From the NCBI GenBank assembly GCA_964490375.1, contig CAZBAZ010000003.1:1448-65447 (forward strand): 64,000 nt of DNA, in the 5' to 3' direction. Shown here in pieces: positions 53,285 to 64,000 of the stretch. Position numbers and translations under genes: made by a program. Position 1 is the first letter of the stretch; every line of letters begins with the position of its first letter. The notes beneath the pieces were generated by a model, which was given only the letters and a program-made list of their open reading frames with translations, searched no databases and had not been told where the DNA came from. The stretch comes from an uncultured Clostridium sp. (GTDB lineage: Bacteria; Bacillota_I; Bacilli_A; RF39; UBA660).

Positions 53285-54244
53285 ATGAAAAAAATAGTAT
53301 ATTCTTTTATACTTTTAGGAATTATTGGGTTTGTGTTTTATGGAATAGTTGTTTGCATTTCAGATATTAATGCTACTAAAGCTGAAACAGATGTTGAGTT
53401 AAGAGATAAAAATAATGAAGAATATATTTATAAAGAACAATTATTACATTTAGGATATACTATTGAAGATGTAAATATTATTGAAAAGAGAGTTAGTGAT
53501 AGTGATGTTAAAAAATATTTATTGAATGAAAAATATGATAATTTAACAAAATTTATTGATTCTCCATATTTCAAAATTGAAAATATTAGTAGATATAGTA
53601 ATTATTATAATAAAAATACTTATACTATTGATAATGCTGTTATTTATGTTAATATTGGGCTTGATAATGAATTTTATTCTACTATAAAAGAAATAACTGA
53701 CTATAATGAAGTTACTGCTCTTGTAAATAAATATAATAAATTACCAAGTAATTATGAAGCAAGTGAAATTATTACATTAGATAAAGAGTATAGTAAAAGT
53801 GGATGTAAGGTTAAGCAAGTTATGCTTAGTAGTTTAAAACAAATGATGGATGATATTAAAAAAGAAGGGATGAAATTGAATGTAATTTCTGGTTATAGAA
53901 CTGAAAGTACTCAAAAAAGTTTATTTAATAATTCTGTTAAAAAGAACGGAGAAAGTCATGCTTTAATATATTCAGCAAAACCAGGTCATTCAGAACATCA
54001 ATTAGGCTTAGCAGTTGATTTTAATACTACTACAGAAAAATTTAAAGATACTAAAGAATATGAATGGTTAAAAAATAATTCATATAAATATGGTTTTATA
54101 GAAAGATATCCAAAAGATAAAGAGTTTATTACAGGATATGGATATGAGCCATGGCATTATAGATATTTAGGAATAGAAGTAGCAACTAAAATATATCAAG
54201 AAGATATAACTTATGAAGAATATGTAGTTAAATACGCAAAGTAG
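53285..54244 (+). CDS. D-alanyl-D-alanine carboxypeptidase, VanY/M15B family
   Basis: N-terminal TM anchor, with catalytic motifs SGYRTESTQ, SEHQLGLAVD and EPWHYRY. Confidence 0.85.
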   Translation: MKKIVYSFILLGIIGFVFYGIVVCISDINATKAETDVELRDKNNEEYIYKEQLLHLGYTIEDVNIIEKRVSDSDVKKYLLNEKYDNLTKFIDSPYFKIENISRYSNYYNKNTYTIDNAVIYVNIGLDNEFYSTIKEITDYNEVTALVNKYNKLPSNYEASEIITLDKEYSKSGCKVKQVMLSSLKQMMDDIKKEGMKLNVISGYRTESTQKSLFNNSVKKNGESHALIYSAKPGHSEHQLGLAVDFNTTTEKFKDTKEYEWLKNNSYKYGFIERYPKDKEFITGYGYEPWHYRYLGIEVATKIYQEDITYEEYVVKYAK

Positions 54245-54911
54245 TTTTGTTAATAAATAATGAGTAATAGAATAAAAATACAAGTGTGCAAGAGATAGTT
54301 ATAATTATAAGAATAACTATTTCTTTTTTTATACTACTTAATTCCTTATATTCACTAGTATCTTTTACTAACGAAACATTCATTGATTTATGAACATGTA
54401 TTATATATTCATCTTGATTATTTATATTAATTTTTATAGTATTGTCATTTGAATTAAAGTTTCCATTACCACTTATATTAACATATGCATCATCATTAGA
54501 TAAATCATAACTAATATTTAATTTTTTTTCATCTTTGATATTAATATCATATTCATGAATATTAGTATCAAAATTAATGTTATATCCTTCTATAATTAAA
54601 TCATTTAATATAGGCTTTAATTCTTCTTTATGATAATCTTTAAATACATTTATCGTATATTCTTTATCATTTGAGATTACTTTAAAAGTAGTTAAATCAT
54701 TAGTTAAAGAAAATATTCCACTACCGGTAACTTGTTCATTTTCTTTTGATTTAACTTGAATATTTATTGAATTACTATAAGTATAATAATTATAAACTTT
54801 AATATCACTATTATAAATTGGGGATAAGTTTTCATTGTTGATTGTTATATTTTCTATTGCTTTTACCTTTATACAAAATAATAAGTTTATTATTAATAAT
54901 ATCTTTTTCAT
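54228..54911 (-). CDS. surface protein with two cadherin-like beta-sandwich repeats and C-terminal TM anchor
   Basis: Signal peptide. Two repeats of the L..L.I.G..I.F....H.Y.I....... type (NITINNENLSPIYNSDIKVYNYY...; LNDLIIEGYNINFDTNIHEYDINI...). C-terminal helix IVILIIITISCTLVFLFYYSLF. Confidence 0.45.
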   Translation of the reverse strand: MKKILLIINLLFCIKVKAIENITINNENLSPIYNSDIKVYNYYTYSNSINIQVKSKENEQVTGSGIFSLTNDLTTFKVISNDKEYTINVFKDYHKEELKPILNDLIIEGYNINFDTNIHEYDINIKDEKKLNISYDLSNDDAYVNISGNGNFNSNDNTIKININNQDEYIIHVHKSMNVSLVKDTSEYKELSSIKKEIVILIIITISCTLVFLFYYSLFINKTTLRI

Positions 54912-56287: not shown

Positions 56288-56318
56288 CAAAAATAAAAAC
56301 AGTCTTTTGAGACTGAGT
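56288..56318 (-). terminator. terminator after the mTERF-like genes
   Basis: Minus strand: CAGTCtcaaaaGACTG followed by TTTTTATTTTT. A TGaTATAAT promoter for pdp follows. Confidence 0.5.
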
Positions 56319-56327
56319 TTATTTTTA

Positions 56328-57107
56328 TTATAATGTGACTTCTTTTCTTTCTTCTAATTCTTCTAATAATTGCTTATTTGTTTTTTTATAATGATTCTTA
56401 AAATATTTTTGATCATAAAATAATATTTTATAATTAGAACTATCTATTGTGATTCCTCTATTCTTAAAAAATATAAATCTTGCATGACTTAATTTTACGC
56501 TTTGCATTAATTGTTTTGAATCTACAAGTGGTAATCTATGTAATCCGATTGAATTATAAAATTCTATTTTTTCTATTATATTTTCTATACTATAACCTAA
56601 TATTGCTGGTAAGTTTGTAATCATTAAAATAACTTCTTCATGAGTATAACCATTTGACTCAATAATATGCATTTTTTCTTTAATAGTTTCTATGTTTAAG
56701 CATAAAACAGATGGAAATAGCAAAATAATATTTTTTATATCTTTTTCTTTAAATCCTAATGTAATCAAATCATTTATTTTAGTTTCTATTGAAGAATTTT
56801 TATAACTAAAGAATTGTTTAAGTGTTTTAATTATTTTAATTATTTCTTTTTTACTATATCCTAAACTTATGAAATAATCTAATTTATCTTTTAAATATTC
56901 TACTCTATATGAATAAATTTTTATATAATTTGATGTTACTTGTAAAACTTGTTCTTTTGTTAGACCATATTCTAATAAAAATGAATTTATACTTTCTATT
57001 TTTGATAATAATAATTCTTCTTTATAATATTGTAATGCATAAGAAGTTCTCATTTCATTTATTGTTTCTAAACTATACCCATAGTTTAAGCAATATTTTT
57101 CTAACAT
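56328..57107 (-). CDS. mTERF-like helical-repeat protein (259 aa from the ATG at 57107)
   Basis: ~35-aa repeats: GYSKKEIIKIIKTLKQFFSYKNSSIETKINDLITL / GFKEKDIKNIILLFPSVLCLNIETIKEKMHIIESN / GYTHEEVILMITNLPAILGYSIENIIEKIEFYNSI. The tail is LMQSVKLSHARFIFF...NYKILFYDQKYFKNHYK. I place the start at 57107 (AAGGGG upstream) because the track start at 57146 lies inside a TGGTATAAT promoter box. Confidence 0.65.
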   Translation of the reverse strand: MLEKYCLNYGYSLETINEMRTSYALQYYKEELLLSKIESINSFLLEYGLTKEQVLQVTSNYIKIYSYRVEYLKDKLDYFISLGYSKKEIIKIIKTLKQFFSYKNSSIETKINDLITLGFKEKDIKNIILLFPSVLCLNIETIKEKMHIIESNGYTHEEVILMITNLPAILGYSIENIIEKIEFYNSIGLHRLPLVDSKQLMQSVKLSHARFIFFKNRGITIDSSNYKILFYDQKYFKNHYKKTNKQLLEELEERKEVTL

Positions 57108-57134
57108 TTTTATCAACCCCTTGATTGGTTTTAT

Positions 57135-57145
57135 ATTATACCACA
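57135..57145 (-). promoter_or_regulatory. extended -10 promoter (TGTGGTATAAT) of the 259-aa mTERF-like gene
   Basis: Minus-strand TGTGGTATAAT lies ~28 nt upstream of the ATG at 57107. Confidence 0.45.
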
Positions 57146-57182
57146 TTTCGAACTATTTTAAAAGTTAAACTTGATGTTTCTG

Positions 57183-57578
57183 CTAAAATTCGTTAAATAA
57201 ATAAGGTTCTGATTCTAAATTATCTACTACATCTTCTAAATTTTCGCCATTTTTAATTCTATTGTCTATATAATTCTTAATTTCAAATGGGTTCAAATTT
57301 AATATATATGGATTTGAATCTAGTAATATATTTATACATGTAAATCCTAGTTTTTTAAGTGTAATTATTAGTAATAATATATCATTATCTTCAGAAGTTA
57401 AATATATAGAATTACTGCTTATTATGTTTCTTATTTCGTTGTCTTTACAGCCTATTTGCCTTAATAATTCTATTTTTTTGATGATATCTAAATCTGTTAA
57501 ATCTTTTATATCTGGATTTATTTCATACATAGTTTTAATTGTATTTTCACTTAAATCTAAATTATATAATTCTTTCAT
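57183..57578 (-). CDS. small mTERF-like repeat protein (131 aa)
   Basis: Two to three degenerate copies of the same repeat (LRQIGCKDNEIRNIISSNSIYLTSEDNDI...LKKLGFTCINILLDSNPYILNLNPFEIKNYI). It overlaps the upstream gene by 17 nt. Confidence 0.5.
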   Translation of the reverse strand: MKELYNLDLSENTIKTMYEINPDIKDLTDLDIIKKIELLRQIGCKDNEIRNIISSNSIYLTSEDNDILLLIITLKKLGFTCINILLDSNPYILNLNPFEIKNYIDNRIKNGENLEDVVDNLESEPYLFNEF

Positions 57579-58662
57579 CTATTTCACCTTTATATTTTTC
57601 TATTAAATCAGAATTAGACATTTTGTATTTTCTTTCAAATTCTTTGCTTCCAATAAATAATTGATTATAGTTATTTTCATCTATTACTATATTACATTCT
57701 TTTATATAAAATATATATCTTGCTTTACTTAATGAAGTACTTTGCATTAGATTCTTAGTCTTTTTTAGTGGTAATTTCTTAAGACCAATTGAATTGTAAA
57801 AGTCTATTTTTTCTTTTATATTTTCTATACTATAGCCAAATAATGCAGGTAAACTCTTTAGCATAGAAATTGTTTCTTCCAAAGTATATCCAAGACTTAG
57901 AATGTCATTTATTTTATTTTTTAAATTTTCTGTACTATAAGTTAATAATAATGGAGAAATTTTAATCATTTCTAAGACTTCTTTTCTTTTAAAGCCTAAA
58001 GCAATTAAATTATTTATTTTATTATTTATCGTTTCTATATTATAGCCTAAGATTGATGGACATATTTGTATCATTTTTAATACATCTTTTTTTGTATAAC
58101 CTAAAAAACATAAATTATATATTTTTCCTAATAAATATTCTGATGGAAGACACAATATTGCAGGGAAAGATAATGTTATTTTTCTTGTTTCTTGTTCATT
58201 ATAAAATTCATTTAATTTATCTAATCTTGACTTTAATGTTTTCCTTGTAATGCCTATTATACGTGGAGATATTTTAGTCATCTTTTTTACTTCATTTTCA
58301 CTATAATTAAGTTCATATAAGTAATTAAGACTTTGTTTTATATTTTCAATATTATATCCTAATATAGATGGATTATTTTTTATCATTTTTTTAACATCAT
58401 TAATGCTATATCCTAAAGCACACAAATCAATTACTTTTTTTGAAATATTATCTAGTGTTAAAACATATATCACTGGATAATAAGTAATCATTTTAATTAT
58501 ATCTTTTGAAGAAAAACCTAGACTAAAAAAATACTTGTTTATTTCTTTTAATTTATTTGTTTTACAAGCAGTAGTATATCTATTAAAAGCAACTAATATT
58601 GATTCTACATCGCTTTCTGTATAACCAAAGTCTATTAAAAATTTTTTTGTTTCTTCTAACAT
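57562..58662 (-). CDS. mTERF-like helical-repeat protein (366 aa, ~8 repeats)
   Basis: Eight consecutive 34-35-aa repeats of the form LG[FY][ST]xx[DE][IV]xKMIxxxPxILxYxIExIxxKIxxLxxL, plus the capping tail LMQSTSLSKARYIFY...NYNQLFIGSKEFERKYK. Confidence 0.7.
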   Translation of the reverse strand: MLEETKKFLIDFGYTESDVESILVAFNRYTTACKTNKLKEINKYFFSLGFSSKDIIKMITYYPVIYVLTLDNISKKVIDLCALGYSINDVKKMIKNNPSILGYNIENIKQSLNYLYELNYSENEVKKMTKISPRIIGITRKTLKSRLDKLNEFYNEQETRKITLSFPAILCLPSEYLLGKIYNLCFLGYTKKDVLKMIQICPSILGYNIETINNKINNLIALGFKRKEVLEMIKISPLLLTYSTENLKNKINDILSLGYTLEETISMLKSLPALFGYSIENIKEKIDFYNSIGLKKLPLKKTKNLMQSTSLSKARYIFYIKECNIVIDENNYNQLFIGSKEFERKYKMSNSDLIEKYKGEIDERII

Positions 58663-58680: not shown

Positions 58681-58691
58681 ATTATACCACA
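58681..58691 (-). promoter_or_regulatory. extended -10 promoter (TGTGGTATAAT) of the 366-aa mTERF-like gene
   Basis: An identical 11-mer, TGTGGTATAAT, lies ~19 nt upstream of the ATG at 58662. Immediately before it is the ssb stop-codon hairpin AAAGCAGAtgaataaTCTGCTTT (58693-58715). Confidence 0.45.
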
Positions 58692-60943: not shown

Positions 60944-62068
60944 GTGAATAAGAAAACATTTATTATTATAGGTTCTTCCATATTAGGATTGTTAGTCGCA
61001 TTAATCTTAATAGTATGGTTGATATCTGTATTTAAGCCTCATTATTATGAGTATGAAGAATTAGAAGAAGAAATGGCTAAACAAGCTGAAAAATATTATA
61101 AGAATAATCCTGATAAGCTACCTAGTGCTGAGGATGGAGTTATACTTTCATATGATACATTAGTTAGTGGTGAATATATGGAACCATTAAGTGAAGTTTT
61201 AAAAGATTCAAGTCAATGTTCAGCATATGTTGTTGTTAATAAGATTGGAGATGTTTATAGTTATACTTCATATTTAAATTGTGGTGATGCTTATAAAACT
61301 ACTGAATTATATAAACAAATATTAAATGATAATCCAATTGTTACAACTGGTAGTGGTCTTTATCAAGATATAGATGGTACTTATTATTTTAAAGGTAAAA
61401 TTAATAATAACTATGTTGCTTTTGGTACTACAGTAAATAGAAAGAAAGAAACATATGATACTCTATGGAGAATAGTTAGTATTGATGAAAATAATAATGT
61501 TAAATTAAAAAGAGTTGAATCTACAAATGATAAATATACTTGGGATGATAGATATAATCAAGATGAGATAGATAGAAGTGGTTATAATGATTTTGAAACA
61601 AGTGTATTTAAGGATAAATTAAAAGATCTTGGTAATAGTGAAGACATATTAACTAATCTTGAAAAAGGAAAAGTTATTGCTAAAAAATTATGTGTTGGTA
61701 AAAGGAGTTGGCTTGATACTTCAAAAGATGGAAGCGTTGAATGTGCTACATTAAGTGAAGAAGAATACATATTTGGAACAATTACTCCATATGAATATTT
61801 AAGAGCAAGCCTTGATGAAAATTGTGATAATGTTAAAAATGGTTCATGTTCAAACTTCAATTTTTTATCTAATGCAACACAAAATCAAGAATGGTTAGTA
61901 ACTGCTGATAGTGATAGTAATAATCTTGTATATAGTTTTGCAGGTAGAAGTTTCTCTTTAGAAAAAGCCAAGTCAAGAAGAGTTATTTACCCTACTGTTA
62001 ATTTAAACACTTATGCATTCTTTAAATCTGGAACTGGTACTGAAGAAGATCCATATAAAATTAGATAA
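60944..62068 (+). CDS. membrane-anchored extracellular protein, unknown function
   Basis: GTG start after AAAAGGAAG. N-terminal TM IIIGSSILGLLVALILIVWLISVF. The Cys-containing ectodomain includes ...YDTLWRIVSIDENNNVKL.... Confidence 0.5.
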   Translation: MNKKTFIIIGSSILGLLVALILIVWLISVFKPHYYEYEELEEEMAKQAEKYYKNNPDKLPSAEDGVILSYDTLVSGEYMEPLSEVLKDSSQCSAYVVVNKIGDVYSYTSYLNCGDAYKTTELYKQILNDNPIVTTGSGLYQDIDGTYYFKGKINNNYVAFGTTVNRKKETYDTLWRIVSIDENNNVKLKRVESTNDKYTWDDRYNQDEIDRSGYNDFETSVFKDKLKDLGNSEDILTNLEKGKVIAKKLCVGKRSWLDTSKDGSVECATLSEEEYIFGTITPYEYLRASLDENCDNVKNGSCSNFNFLSNATQNQEWLVTADSDSNNLVYSFAGRSFSLEKAKSRRVIYPTVNLNTYAFFKSGTGTEEDPYKIR

Positions 62069-62108: not shown

Positions 62109-63905
62109 TTAAACTTCGTTTGTTTTTAGTGGAGCTTTTACTTGGTCTGCACTTACAAACCAATTATTGCCTATTTGAGCATTTGATGATGTTGGTGATG
62201 GATCTGGTTTATCTATTTTTGCAAATGTTGGTATATTAAATGCATTTCCGAAACATAAAGCACATCCTGGACTTAATGATTTTAATTTTTCTACATCATT
62301 ATCTGATATACTATGTGATATTGCTTTTACTATTTTTAAATCATCAGGATGGAACATTCTTAACACAATATAATTTGAACATTGACTTAAACTTGTTGTA
62401 GATAGTTCACTTGGTCTTTGAGTTATAAAGCCTAAAATAACTCCGTATTTTCTACCCTCTTTAGTAATTCTATCAAAAATATTATATCCAAGTATAGCTG
62501 TGTCACTATCTGCTTGTACATATCTATGTGCCTCTTCTAATAATATTTGAATTGAATAATTTCCATTATCATTTAATGCAATTGCATAATCTAAAAATAA
62601 TTTAGAATATATTTTTGTTAATGCTTTAGCAAATCTTTCATCAACATAATTTAAATTTAAATTTATTATTTGAACTTTTTCTCCATTTTTATTTGTGAAT
62701 AGTCTTTTAACATATTCTTTCTTATCTATGTATTCTTCCATTTCAAAGTATCTTCCATAATCACCATTAATAATTGAATCTAGTCTGACTTTTAATACAT
62801 TATTTATGTCATATACTCTATCACTTTTTAAAACACCTTCACTTATAAGAGCAAATTCAAATGCGCTATATAAATCTTTTAAATTATATTTTTTAGGTTT
62901 CATTTCTCTATTTAGTTTTAAATCATCATTAACAAAGTTTTCCATGAATTCTATAACTAGTTGCATAGTATTCATTTTACCTGTTTGATCCAAATTTAAG
63001 CATTGCCTTAATGTTCTTATATATCCAGGTTGAACTATTTCACTATCTAAATTTATGTCATTAGTACGGAATGCAGATAAAACTGCTACTACTTGGTCTC
63101 TTATTTGGGCAGGAGTTTTACCACTTGTTAATATATCTAATACAGCTTTTGCAATAATATTGTTTTTGTAAGCAATTACTTTAGATTCTTCTTCTGTAAA
63201 TAGATAAACATATTTTAAGGCTTTTTCAATTATTGTTAATTGAGCTGGATTATCTATTCCAAGTAGTAGTGCAATATCATCTACCTCTAAAAAATATGGT
63301 GGAATTTTAACAATTTCACTTGTAGTTGTGTGAATATTTGTTGTGTATGTTTTACATCTACAATAAGGCGTTTGATTGATTCGGTCTAATGCAGTATGAT
63401 ACTCTCCATATACATCAAATAAAACTATATTTGAATTAATAGGTATATATTTTTGTTTATAGAAAATATTTTGAAGAATTCTTGCAACAGTACAACTTTT
63501 ACCACTACCCGTGTTACCTATTATAGCAAAATGATTTGAGAATAAATCATTAATGTTAGCAGAAACATTAAATCCTTCATAAATAACACTTTTTCCAATA
63601 TATAGACTGTTTTTTGCATCCACAAGTTGTTCTCCAAGTAATTCAAACACTTCTTCTTTATTTACTATTCTAATTGTTGCATTATAACTAGGCTTATGAC
63701 TAACTCCTGATACAAATTTATTATTAATGAATTCTCCAACTAATATACATTCTATTGTTTCTTTGTTTATTTTTGTTAACTCTGCTGCTATTTTATTTTT
63801 ATCTTCAAATACAATATGAGCACCTGATAAATTTGCATCTACTCTTTTTGATAAATTTTCTATTTTTATAGTAAAATCTTCTATTGATAAAATCTTTCCA
63901 AACAT
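62109..63905 (-). CDS. HerA/DUF87-type P-loop ATPase
   Basis: N-terminal barrel-like ~100 aa, Walker A IIGNTGSGKSCTVARIL, Walker B SIQILLEEAHRYV, and GVILGFITQRPSELS (the FtsK/HerA-type arginine-finger region). Upstream are a TGtTATAAT box and an AAGGGAG SD. Confidence 0.7.
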   Translation of the reverse strand: MFGKILSIEDFTIKIENLSKRVDANLSGAHIVFEDKNKIAAELTKINKETIECILVGEFINNKFVSGVSHKPSYNATIRIVNKEEVFELLGEQLVDAKNSLYIGKSVIYEGFNVSANINDLFSNHFAIIGNTGSGKSCTVARILQNIFYKQKYIPINSNIVLFDVYGEYHTALDRINQTPYCRCKTYTTNIHTTTSEIVKIPPYFLEVDDIALLLGIDNPAQLTIIEKALKYVYLFTEEESKVIAYKNNIIAKAVLDILTSGKTPAQIRDQVVAVLSAFRTNDINLDSEIVQPGYIRTLRQCLNLDQTGKMNTMQLVIEFMENFVNDDLKLNREMKPKKYNLKDLYSAFEFALISEGVLKSDRVYDINNVLKVRLDSIINGDYGRYFEMEEYIDKKEYVKRLFTNKNGEKVQIINLNLNYVDERFAKALTKIYSKLFLDYAIALNDNGNYSIQILLEEAHRYVQADSDTAILGYNIFDRITKEGRKYGVILGFITQRPSELSTTSLSQCSNYIVLRMFHPDDLKIVKAISHSISDNDVEKLKSLSPGCALCFGNAFNIPTFAKIDKPDPSPTSSNAQIGNNWFVSADQVKAPLKTNEV

Positions 63906-64000
63906 GTTTCGTTCTCCCTTATTACTCTATTCATAATTATAACATATTAAGAGAATAAAAAACAACCATATCAAAATGATTCAGTGAAAAAGAGTAAATA

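Follow-up and report, generated by a model that had tools for sequence, protein, structure and literature searches.

The locus, part of a bacterial chromosome, comprises three co-directional genes on the minus strand of the 64-kb stretch of bacterial DNA that we analyzed (the window). Flanking it are sufS-like, ssb, and pyrimidine-nucleoside phosphorylase genes, and a matching gene layout was found in a gut 'Bacilli' MAG. All three ORFs (366, 131, and 259 aa) are present where the first-pass annotation had placed them, and together with the signals around them they are, in order of coordinate:

56290..56315, minus strand: hairpin CAGTCTCAAAAGACTG resembling an intrinsic terminator, with a T-run after it, just past gene B
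56328..57107, minus strand: gene B, long mTERF-repeat protein B (259 aa; 4 detectable repeats plus a C-terminal module)
57135..57145, minus strand: extended –10 element TGTGGTATAAT, identical to that of gene A, 27 nt upstream of the gene B ATG
57183..57578, minus strand: mini-mTERF (131 aa, pI 4.34, net charge –11, 3.5 repeats)
57562..57578, minus strand: 17-nt overlap of the gene A stop with the start of the mini gene
57562..58662, minus strand: gene A, long mTERF-repeat protein A (366 aa, pI 9.18, net charge +14)
58681..58691, minus strand: TGTGGTATAAT, resembling an extended –10 promoter element, 18 nt ahead of the gene A ATG

A mechanical ORF list places the start of gene B at 57146, which gives a 272-aa product (pI 9.0, net charge +7). 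Since the ATG at 57146 falls within the TGTGGTATAAT extended –10 element (57135–57145), while the ATG at 57107 is preceded by an AAGGGG ribosome-binding site, and since gene callers used the 259-aa start on 8 metagenome contigs, we prefer the latter; it is also the start chosen in the first-pass annotation. The copy of TGTGGTATAAT ahead of gene A lies downstream of the SSB stop codon, that is, between the SSB gene and the first mTERF gene. The general form TRTGnTATAAT occurs 10 times in the window, always on the coding strand, against 2.24 expected, and none of 100 shuffles reached 10. Upstream of long genes elsewhere, extended –10 elements are no more frequent than background, so that per-gene promoters for the long genes are local and not a family rule. 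The terminator-like hairpin was called on both strands, which gives 2 sites in the region against 0.6 expected. The 17-nt overlap of gene A and the mini gene suggests that the two are translationally coupled. The search of the window for RNA genes gave no Rfam match and no tRNA.

The proteins are mTERF-family helical-repeat solenoids. Against a gathering threshold of 23.1 bits, the Pfam mTERF model (PF02536) scores 147.3 bits (E 6.3e-43) on the 366-aa protein, 74.4 bits (E 9.9e-21) on the gene B product in its 272-aa form, and 23.8 bits (E 2.5e-5), which is borderline, on the 131-aa protein. All three scores far exceed chance expectation, and precomputed matches to PF02536 exist for most homologues of the 131-aa protein. 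Among solved structures, sequence matches were obtained to MTERF3 at 3e-9 and to MTERF1 at 1e-6, and with the family profile at 7.7e-15 and 1e-14, respectively. The AF2 model of the 366-aa protein (pLDDT 93.6) is all-alpha with about 8 helix-helix-helix triads; its top Foldseek match in the PDB is the MTERF1–DNA complex (3mva, TMq 0.65, TMt 0.72), and the first 17 matches consist only of MTERF1, 3, 4, or mS93. The model of the 131-aa protein (pLDDT 95.3) matches MTERF3 (3m66) with a TMq of 0.80 and an rmsd of 2.7. Both predicted models are superhelical solenoids, and the kinship with mTERF proteins that had been proposed from the letters of the DNA is thus borne out by profile, by solved-structure matches, and by predicted fold. 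The genes themselves are not nuclear-encoded with organelle-imported products: they lie on a bacterial chromosome and carry bacterial promoter and ribosome-binding signals.

By definition (PMC11417379, quoting Roberti 2009), an mTERF motif spans about 30–35 aa, has Pro conserved at 'position 8', and is hydrophobic at +3, +10, and +17. The present family has a period of 35 aa, with 1–11 units detected per protein and nearly all proteins having 3–11. Over 525 repeats, position 15 is Pro in 92%, and the hydrophobic residues fall at positions 18 (Y/F/L in 95%), 25 (I/L/M in 97%), and 32 (L/M/I/Y/F in 99%), i.e., at +3, +10, and +17, so that repeat length and conserved Pro both agree with mTERF, as first suggested. 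By repeat HMM, the 366-aa protein has 7 canonical units of 33–35 aa (residues 49–291) and the 259-aa protein has 4; each is completed by a degenerate unit at the N-terminus and by the C-terminal module. The eight back-to-back copies initially counted in the 366-aa protein are therefore approximately right, and the AF2 model has roughly 8 triads. At the DNA level, the 105-nt (35-codon) unit forms the largest direct-repeat family of the window, with 7 copies over the two long genes. Giant members of the family are pure repeats. The only domain fusion found, of a cytidylate kinase with mTERF repeats, is probably a fusion of neighboring genes.

Within each 35-aa repeat the scaffold is constant, consisting of G1, Y2, P15, and K28 with the hydrophobic core; position 28 is K/R in 98% of the 525 repeats, and K9 is likewise conserved throughout. 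Near-identical repeats differ from each other mainly at positions 13, 14, 16, 19, and 20, which surround the conserved Pro. Among 377 pairs of repeats from the same protein with at least 70% identity, differences were found at position 13 in 56%, 14 in 47%, 16 in 62%, 19 in 55%, and 20 in 54% of pairs, compared with 0–2% at G1 and K28, and repeats inside one protein can reach 80–88% identity. Orthologues (87–89% identical) mostly retain the residues of this variable patch and their substitutions are not concentrated there, whereas paralogues differ in it. When the patch is mapped onto MTERF1, by sequence alignment only and with the offset fixed via the F243A mutation, R202, F243, and R350 of MTERF1 align at Pro+1, equivalent to position 16 of the family repeat; in MTERF1, R202 and R350 read bases directly (PMC4705650). 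In the patch, small or polar residues (S, A, T, Q, and also N or K) predominate over Arg, so the reading chemistry may differ from that of MTERF1.

The composition of the repeats bears on what the long proteins are likely to bind. Their basic charge and the near-invariant Lys in each repeat lead us to predict DNA or RNA binding. One could instead regard them as protein–protein scaffolds that bind no nucleic acid, with the acidic mini as one ligand, since alpha-solenoids frequently bind proteins, the patch is mostly small and polar rather than Arg/Lys, and the proteins give weak Pfam cross-matches to UBA- and RuvA_C-like helical motifs. We consider this improbable: basic charge is a consistent feature of the long proteins, every repeat conserves K28 and K9, and the characterized members of the fold all bind DNA or RNA, including the prokaryotic relatives pTERF1 and pTERF2, which bind DNA (PMC11417379).

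Both long proteins end in a module of the form LMQS...ARY...NY..LF. The repeat examples and the two tails, LMQS..LS.AR[YF]IF...NY..LF, are verbatim as the first-pass annotation quoted them; its reading of the tail as a mirror of the eukaryotic mTERF cap is not supported. In scans restricted to the C-terminal 109 or 74 residues, the alignment to the Pfam mTERF model covered the last canonical repeat only (model positions 227–259 of 314) and no part of the tail itself. The C-terminal region is not defining for mTERF, so membership in the family stands despite the unmatched tail. As judged from its sequence, the tail is a family-specific module: it has 63% mean column identity across the family versus 18% for whole proteins, and the 188-nt stretch that encodes it is 73% identical between the two paralogues of the window.

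The 131-aa protein stands apart. The three genes had been taken for simple paralogues, and the kinship with mTERF holds for the mini as well, but it represents a separate family that is acidic, nearly invariant in length, and present once per array. Its homologues form 431 clusters, almost all of exactly 131 aa. The mini has a median pI of 4.34 and a net charge of –12, as compared with median pI values of 8.73 for the long proteins and 6.3 for background proteins. Exactly one mini is present in each of the 42 loci that carry it, and it is acidic in all of them. A long gene lies directly upstream in 33 of the 42, and in 26 of these 33 junctions the two ORFs overlap, with starts as called by the ORF caller. 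The mini has an extended –10 element of its own in only 1 of 42 loci, against 14% of background genes. This arrangement gives the mini the appearance of an obligatory acidic partner of the long genes. A Rosetta-stone search for fusions of long and mini proteins found none, and weak matches of the mini HMM within long proteins proved to be ordinary repeat cross-matches. There is one strong case of a fusion (locus L019), in which the mini is joined to a different small protein. As read from its sequence, the mini runs to repeat position 21 (G111...P125...F131), and the repeat HMM aligns poorly to it; the long proteins typically begin 9–11 residues ahead of the first GY. It is suggestive, from these positions, that the end of the mini and the start of the long proteins may be complementary termini.

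The family forms chromosomal arrays of 1–10 basic long genes in at least 48 species of low-GC gut MAGs. A genome scan, run with the C-terminal alignment (the full-length family alignment has no conserved stretch), gave 54 loci in 48 MAG species labeled Bacilli, Clostridia, Tenericutes, or Erysipelotrichaceae, including RGIG ruminant MAGs. The size of the family ranges from 578 to 2,314 representative clusters, with at least 578 at 50% identity and E ≤ 1e-30. Copy number varies even between close relatives: the window has 3 array genes versus 6 in a sister genome (L001), although the flanking DNA is 92% identical and the gene B product is 88% identical to that of the final gene of the sister array. 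The paralogues are 33–45% identical.

This survey of taxa and neighborhoods, which the first-pass annotation had suggested, shows that the array architecture recurs and that the link to SSB, from which a nucleic-acid-directed role had been argued, is not conserved. When the genes of all loci were searched by BLAST with the SSB of the window, an SSB adjoined the array in 3 of 50 loci (the window, its sister, and a fragment in a third, L013), and in the window an extended –10 element separates it from the first mTERF gene. We rejected SSB linkage as a functional clue on the basis of this count. The adjacent SSB, which is tail-less and SsbB-like, a HerA-type ATPase 3.4 kb away, and the variation in copy number might point to a function in conflict or in mobile elements, i.e., to defense or anti-defense, to a recent eukaryote-derived island, or, as a variant, to SSB-linked uptake or recombination. 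Such a function is very improbable in our view. The three proteins have no match in PADLOC and only noise in PHROGs (E ~0.006–0.009), and tblastn against 50,697 phage records, against IMG/VR contigs, and against 72,556 plasmids (PLSDB) brought up no homologue, so that an origin in defense systems, phages, or plasmids was rejected. In addition, the flanks are housekeeping genes, syntenic inside each lineage, the paralogues are old (33–45% identity), the GC content of the locus agrees with that of the genome, and orthologue substitutions are not focused on the variable patch.

The neighbors of the arrays raise a weightier alternative, namely that the long proteins bind rRNA, tRNA, or mRNA leaders in ribosome biogenesis or RNA maturation and that the mini is an assembly cofactor. 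Arrays adjoin pheS in 8 loci, pheT in 6, and alaS, gltX, and a SpoU rRNA methylase with an MRM3-like domain in 3 each. MTERF3 is the best sequence match among solved structures and the best fit of the mini model, MTERF4 and the mitoribosomal mS93 also match, and MTERF3, MTERF4–NSUN4, mS93, and several plant mTERFs act in this manner. However, these neighbors represent a few lineage-specific synteny blocks with housekeeping flanks and not independent associations, and adjacency to tRNA genes is inconsistent, with only sporadic tRNAs across 36 loci. A copy number of 3 versus 6 in sister genomes, and of 1 to 10 over species, is unlike that of a core ribosome-biogenesis factor. Moreover, the full-length model superposes best on DNA-bound MTERF1, and the only prokaryotic relatives tested, pTERF1 and pTERF2, bind dsDNA (PMC11417379). 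We therefore think an RNA-directed role rather unlikely.

The reading that we favor, to which we assign a probability of about 55%, is that the long proteins are modular, sequence-specific readers of nucleic acid, probably dsDNA, that share an acidic partner and serve as site-specific regulators or roadblocks. For the ligand, the reading code, the interaction of long and mini proteins, and the role in the cell, we infer the following. Each long protein would wrap along a nucleic-acid duplex, most likely dsDNA, the ligand shown for MTERF1 and, in vitro, for pTERF1 and pTERF2. A specific sequence would be read by the variable patch, with backbone contacts made by the near-invariant lysines, and different paralogues would recognize different sites. 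The C-terminal module and the single, co-translated acidic mini would be the shared elements of a two-part system. To judge by its gene arrangement, the mini may bind to the long readers and serve all of them as adaptor, cap, or inhibitor. In the cell, the most plausible role of the readers would be to bind particular sites of the host chromosome as regulators or as roadblocks to transcription.

A bolder version of this proposal can be offered only tentatively. It holds that the arrays of low-GC gut Bacilli are a native, programmable two-component system of nucleic-acid recognition. TALE-like readers, their specificity set by a five-residue patch in each repeat, would be switched or coupled by one shared mini, which would dock, for example, at the conserved C-terminal module or end-to-end with the solenoid. 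The family, large and inherited vertically, would then also be the nearest relative of organellar mTERF proteins among prokaryotes and might be their source.

The 2024 report of pTERF1 and pTERF2 treated prokaryotic mTERF-like proteins as isolated DNA binders in vitro; here they appear as a large family of chromosomal arrays. The proposed mechanism provides a testable model for how specificity is encoded in mTERF repeats, which is unclear even for the organellar proteins, and in gut Bacilli that are uncultured and have reduced genomes, the arrays are candidates for a new class of regulators acting on transcription or on the chromosome. The repeats may also offer a compact scaffold for engineered DNA binders, the activity of which the partner protein could affect. 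It should be noted that a 2026 paper on plant mTERFs still describes these proteins as absent from prokaryotes (PMC12977773).

Among known systems, TALE and BurrH proteins are alike in outline, with tandem 33–35-aa helical repeats that vary at few positions per repeat, yet there is no homology (Foldseek to 4hpz, E 1.3e-2 and TM 0.27–0.30; to BurrH, E 6). TALE repeats vary in a two-residue RVD loop, whereas those of the window family vary in a five-position patch around Pro. The resemblance is one of organization only, and a one-repeat-one-base code is hypothetical here.

The nearest comparison is with pTERF1 and pTERF2. These mTERF-like proteins of prokaryotes, described from gut Bacillota MAGs, have 3–11 units of 35 aa and bind dsDNA in vitro in a sequence-specific manner with a Kd of 1.87 nM for ACTNNNAGTC (PMC11417379, NAR 2024). 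Hence the statement in the first-pass annotation that no bacterial member had a described function had been overtaken by the literature. Source, tandem 35-aa period, number of units, and annotation with the mTERF motif are alike, as compared by description only. According to its authors, the repeat units of pTERF1 (MBQ3414883.1) are three-helix units by AlphaFold with no conserved Pro or Leu pattern, and they suggested that specificity depends on the arrangement of repeats (PMC11417379). By that description pTERF1 is unlike the window family, which keeps Pro15 and the hydrophobic residues at +3, +10, and +17; either pTERF1 belongs to a different sub-family or its authors used another register. 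They counted about 47 homologues, as against 578 to 2,314 representative clusters here. That bacterial mTERF-like proteins bind specific dsDNA in vitro is thus already known, and the pTERF paper is without mention of gene arrays, a C-terminal module, an acidic 131-aa partner, or the variable patch (PMC11417379). Sites for the pTERF1 motif ACTNNNAGTC are no more numerous in the window than expected (4 versus 3.99), a count that tells little since paralogues are expected to differ in specificity, and a search of the window for dispersed repeats as candidate binding sites gave, coding repeats aside, AT-rich chance matches only.

Human MTERF1 (PDB 3MVA/3N6S) shares with the window family the Pfam family, the predicted superhelical fold (about 325 aligned columns, TMt 0.72), and a conserved Pro that opens the short helix of each motif. 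Its Pro+1 positions hold the base-contacting R202 and R350 and the stacking F243, and Pro+1 is the most variable position in the window family. MTERF1 differs in its sequence (about 18% identity), in being the nuclear-encoded, organelle-targeted product of a single gene, and in its degenerate, interspersed motifs, while the window family has regular tandem repeats, several paralogues per locus, and a C-terminal module specific to the bacterial proteins. MTERF1 reads DNA mainly by arginines with base flipping, whereas the variable residues here are mostly S, A, T, Q, N, or K. MTERF3, MTERF4–NSUN4, and mS93, which act on rRNA or ribosomes, are the closest sequence matches among solved structures. 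MTERF4 is a heterodimer with its partner at the C-terminal end, and this is a conceptual parallel to the C-terminal module and the mini; the partner of MTERF4 is a methyltransferase, a kind of enzyme not consistently linked to the arrays, and the candidate partner in the window is an acidic mTERF fragment of 3.5 repeats.

All three reading frames described in the first-pass annotation are found in the ORF list and share one transcription direction, in a window of about 25% GC whose genes lie mostly on the minus strand.

57562-58662, minus strand: gene A, long mTERF-repeat protein, 366 aa
57183-57578, minus strand: mini, a mini-mTERF, 131 aa
56328-57107, minus strand: gene B, second long mTERF-repeat protein, 259 aa (in the ORF list to 57146, 272 aa from an upstream ATG)

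The 259-aa start first chosen for gene B, the ATG at 57107, is the true one, because an AAGGGG ribosome-binding site lies just before it, the upstream ATG of the 272-aa frame falls inside an extended -10 element (TGTGGTATAAT), and independent gene calls in eight metagenome contigs give 259 aa. Assignment to the mTERF family was likewise correct. Specifically, all three proteins exceed the Pfam mTERF cut-off of 23.1 bits (147.3 for the 366-aa protein, 74.4 for the third gene, 23.8 for the 131-aa protein), and NCBIfam has no model for them. A sequence search of the PDB matches MTERF3 (3e-9), MTERF1 (1e-6), mS93 and MTERF4, and the family profile matches MTERF3 (7.7e-15), MTERF1 (1.3e-14) and MTERF4 (1.6e-11). 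The AlphaFold2 model of the 366-aa protein (pLDDT 93.6, pTM 0.80) consists of helix-helix-helix triads, and among its Foldseek matches in the PDB the best 17 are mTERF proteins without exception, the human MTERF1-DNA complex coming first (E 3.4e-9, TM 0.65/0.72, 325 columns); the 131-aa model comprises 3.5 repeats (pLDDT 95.3) and fits MTERF3 with a TMq of 0.80 and an rmsd of 2.7 Å. The family keeps the canonical motif, Pro with hydrophobics at +3, +10 and +17. The quoted repeats and tails are present in the proteins, with seven canonical units by repeat HMM in the 366-aa and four in the 259-aa protein, and at the DNA level no direct-repeat family in the whole window is larger than that of the 105-nt unit. 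The conserved C-terminal tail of the long proteins had been read as the counterpart of the eukaryotic mTERF cap, a reading we do not retain: the Pfam mTERF model does not cover the tail, which is specific to this bacterial family.

Identical copies of TGTGGTATAAT lie upstream of genes A and B, and a hairpin with a T-run lies downstream of gene B; hence the predicted layout is a promoter P1 for the 366- and 131-aa genes, then a promoter P2 for the 259-aa gene, then a terminator. The consensus TRTGnTATAAT occurs at 10 sites in the window versus 2.2 expected, all on the coding (minus) strand and at least five directly upstream of a listed ORF, and gives a usable promoter signature for this organism. 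The P1/P2 arrangement is local to the window, since elsewhere the extended -10 precedes long genes at background frequency. The 64-kb window contains no Rfam family at gathering score and no tRNA gene by ARAGORN.

The scaffold, taken over 525 repeats of 86 long proteins, reads GY[TS]KEEVIKMTK-x-L-P-x-IY-x-x-SIENIKQKI, with G1 at 100%, P15 at 92% and K28 at 94% (98% K or R). Repeats in some members are 80-88% identical to one another, and in 377 within-protein repeat pairs of at least 70% identity the differences pile up at positions 13 (56%), 14 (47%), 16 (62%), 19 (55%) and 20 (54%). With the MTERF1 numbering offset set by the F243A mutation of entry 3MVB, the HMMER alignment puts R202, F243 and R350 of MTERF1 at family position 16 (Pro+1) and R251 at Pro+9. 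The direct base-readout residues of MTERF1 are R162, R202, R251, R350 and R387 (PMC4705650). From the alignment of R202 and R350 at position 16, the hypervariable patch thus holds a position that contacts bases in the MTERF1-DNA structure, and we infer that it reads bases here too, although MTERF1 reads bases through Arg and the patch mostly uses S, A, T, Q, N or K. That the repeats are a protein scaffold and nothing else strikes us as improbable.

The architecture was counted in 50 loci carrying an mTERF array, drawn from a scan of MAG genomes. Long genes stand in tandem, 1 to 10 copies per array; an 11.5-kb contig of a water-deer caecum MAG (L043, 1-11509) is filled by ten consecutive ones. 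The mini is present in exactly one copy in all 42 loci that have it, with 0-5 full-length long genes, and among the eight mini-less loci several are on short contigs or place the array at the end of a contig. In 33 of the 42 loci the gene directly upstream of the mini is a long one, the two ORFs overlapping at 26 of these 33 junctions by the ORF caller's starts (17 nt in the window), and only one of 42 loci has an extended -10 element for the mini itself, versus 14% of background genes. Charge sets the two kinds of protein apart: the long proteins are basic (median pI 8.73; +14 and +7 for the window's pair), whereas the mini is acidic in all loci (pI 4.05-4.84, net -7 to -23), against a background median pI of 6.3. 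The mini is almost invariably 131 aa long, with a mean column identity of 67%; in the long proteins this value is 63% in the C-terminal module versus 18% overall.

Based on these data, we propose that the basic long proteins would act as modular, sequence-specific nucleic-acid readers, most probably of dsDNA as the predicted ligand, with different paralogues recognising different sites. The C-terminal module and the co-translated acidic mini would be the common parts, whose putative complex may cap, couple or inhibit the readers. In the cell they would most plausibly serve in site-specific regulation or as a transcription roadblock.

Several variants of the array were seen. A third small protein family (115-181 aa, motif AYSEVLEILKxIP...FRDYWAT, no Pfam hit), absent from the window, lies within or beside the array in 12 loci (L003 4417-4875; L004 652-1197; L010 9221-9568; L011 10498-10941; L017 11580-12068; L019 10407-11219; also L021, L023, L028, L029, L040 and L053), and L019 has it joined in-frame to the mini in a 270-aa ORF. 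Protein P0010 (L034, 6344-8110) is a 588-aa fusion of a cytidylate kinase, complete over residues 3-212 (Pfam E 3e-71), to an mTERF repeat array, and the representative library holds giant repeat proteins of up to 2013 aa (P0236; P0259 has 1589 aa).

The neighbourhood of the window's array includes the following.

54228-54911, minus strand: ORF without Pfam hit, 227 aa
58701-59039, minus strand: SSB, 112 aa, TTG start
60944-62068, plus strand: ORF without Pfam hit, 374 aa, conserved in the sister genome L001 (cluster c39)
62109-63905, minus strand: HerA-type ATPase, 598 aa (PADLOC PDLC04102, E 5.7e-113; Pfam DUF87)
63936-63946: TATGTTATAAT, promoter element of the HerA ATPase

A nucleic-acid-directed role had been argued from the adjacent SSB gene; this argument loses its footing, as only the window and L001 have an SSB beside the array, and L013 a fragment of one. 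The SSB looks like a second, SsbB-like rather than a replicative protein: its C-terminus (...VDKADE) presumably lacks the acidic tip of the usual SSB tail, and its best NCBIfam models, PRK06752 and PRK07274 (types of roughly 112-131 aa), both score far below cut-off. Both the 374- and 227-aa ORFs begin with a hydrophobic segment, which suggests a membrane anchor or signal sequence. Defence-type HerA usually has a partner gene, e.g. Sir2 or DUF4297; none is seen in the window, which stops at 64000, and L001 has two further genes (632 and 547 aa) upstream. That the mTERF array serves in conflict or as part of a mobile element seems to us very remote; homologues were found in no phage genome, IMG/VR viral contig or plasmid, and the three proteins have no PADLOC or PHROG match.

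The window's array is flanked by a class-V aminotransferase (SufS-like), a HIT protein, pyrimidine-nucleoside phosphorylase, VanY and a MacB-type ABC system, and other loci by lineage-specific housekeeping blocks (pheS/pheT, alaS-yceG, gltX, a SpoU/MRM3-like methylase, a YgjP-like protein, rubrerythrin, spo0A); the family therefore has the look of vertical inheritance at core-genome positions. Three loci (L008 11861-12586, L033, L035) have, downstream of the array, an rRNA methylase of the SpoU family with an N-terminal match to Pfam's MRM3-like substrate binding domain; eight have pheS in that place, in six cases with pheT. We remark on the methylase because MTERF4 partners with an rRNA methyltransferase, and an RNA-directed or ribosome-biogenesis role of the array is conceivable, if unlikely; the methylase and pheST adjacency may reflect only an ancestral chromosomal position.

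L001, a Hadza-gut 'Bacilli' MAG whose flanks share 92% DNA identity with the window, has six mTERF genes versus three. Its extra 2.9 kb carries three paralogues of only 33-40% mutual identity, and the junction lies at ATGTTAGAA, common to the 5' ends of two paralogues; recombination thus adds or removes old, diverged paralogues. Between orthologues identity is 87-89%, with substitutions dispersed along the repeat without favouring the variable patch.

A word-indexed search gave 61 homologue clusters for the long protein and 431 for the mini, and a profile search run exhaustively over 1.84 billion representatives gave 578 proteins at E <= 1e-30, 2,314 at E <= 1e-10 and 4,788 at E <= 1e-3, with eukaryotic mTERFs probably among the weaker hits. 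The genome scan took one genome per species and used one peptide pattern, drawn from the C-terminal region; it gave 54 loci in 48 MAG assemblies. Their record titles name human, rabbit, goat, deer, mouse and rumen gut samples, their labels are Bacilli, Clostridia, Tenericutes, Erysipelotrichaceae or Clostridium sp. CAG:433, and the GC content is 23-31% in nearly all. Two labels probably reflect binning or labelling problems: Candidatus Nanosyncoccus (L026, JAZUJS010000090.1; 44% GC, mTERF gene at the contig start) and Muribaculaceae (L027, CAYWED010000001.1; 26% GC, three-gene array plus mini).

The cluster first reported is real, and its proteins are not the first bacterial mTERF-like ones with a described activity. 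A 2026 plant mTERF paper still calls the family absent from bacteria (PMC12977773), and the first-pass annotation knew of no bacterial member with a described function; prokaryotic mTERF-like tandem-repeat proteins, 'pTERF', had already been published in Nucleic Acids Res in 2024 with the DNA binding of two members (PMC11417379), the only paper on bacterial mTERFs that our literature search found. pTERF1 (MBQ3414883.1, 35-aa period), from a ruminant-gut 'Clostridia bacterium' MAG, binds ACTNNNAGTC with a Kd of 1.87 nM, pTERF2 has a different binding motif, and members, most of them from Bacillota MAGs, carry 3-11 units (PMC11417379). All of these descriptors (period, unit number, MAG origin) are common to the window's family, which, compared by descriptors, is probably identical with pTERF, although the conserved Pro is absent from pTERF1 according to its authors (PMC11417379) and present here. 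Operons, paralogues and partner proteins go unmentioned in the pTERF paper (PMC11417379), as do three features that are worth following up: the array with its acidic partner, the hypervariable patch as defined here, and the bacterial family's size and vertical inheritance.
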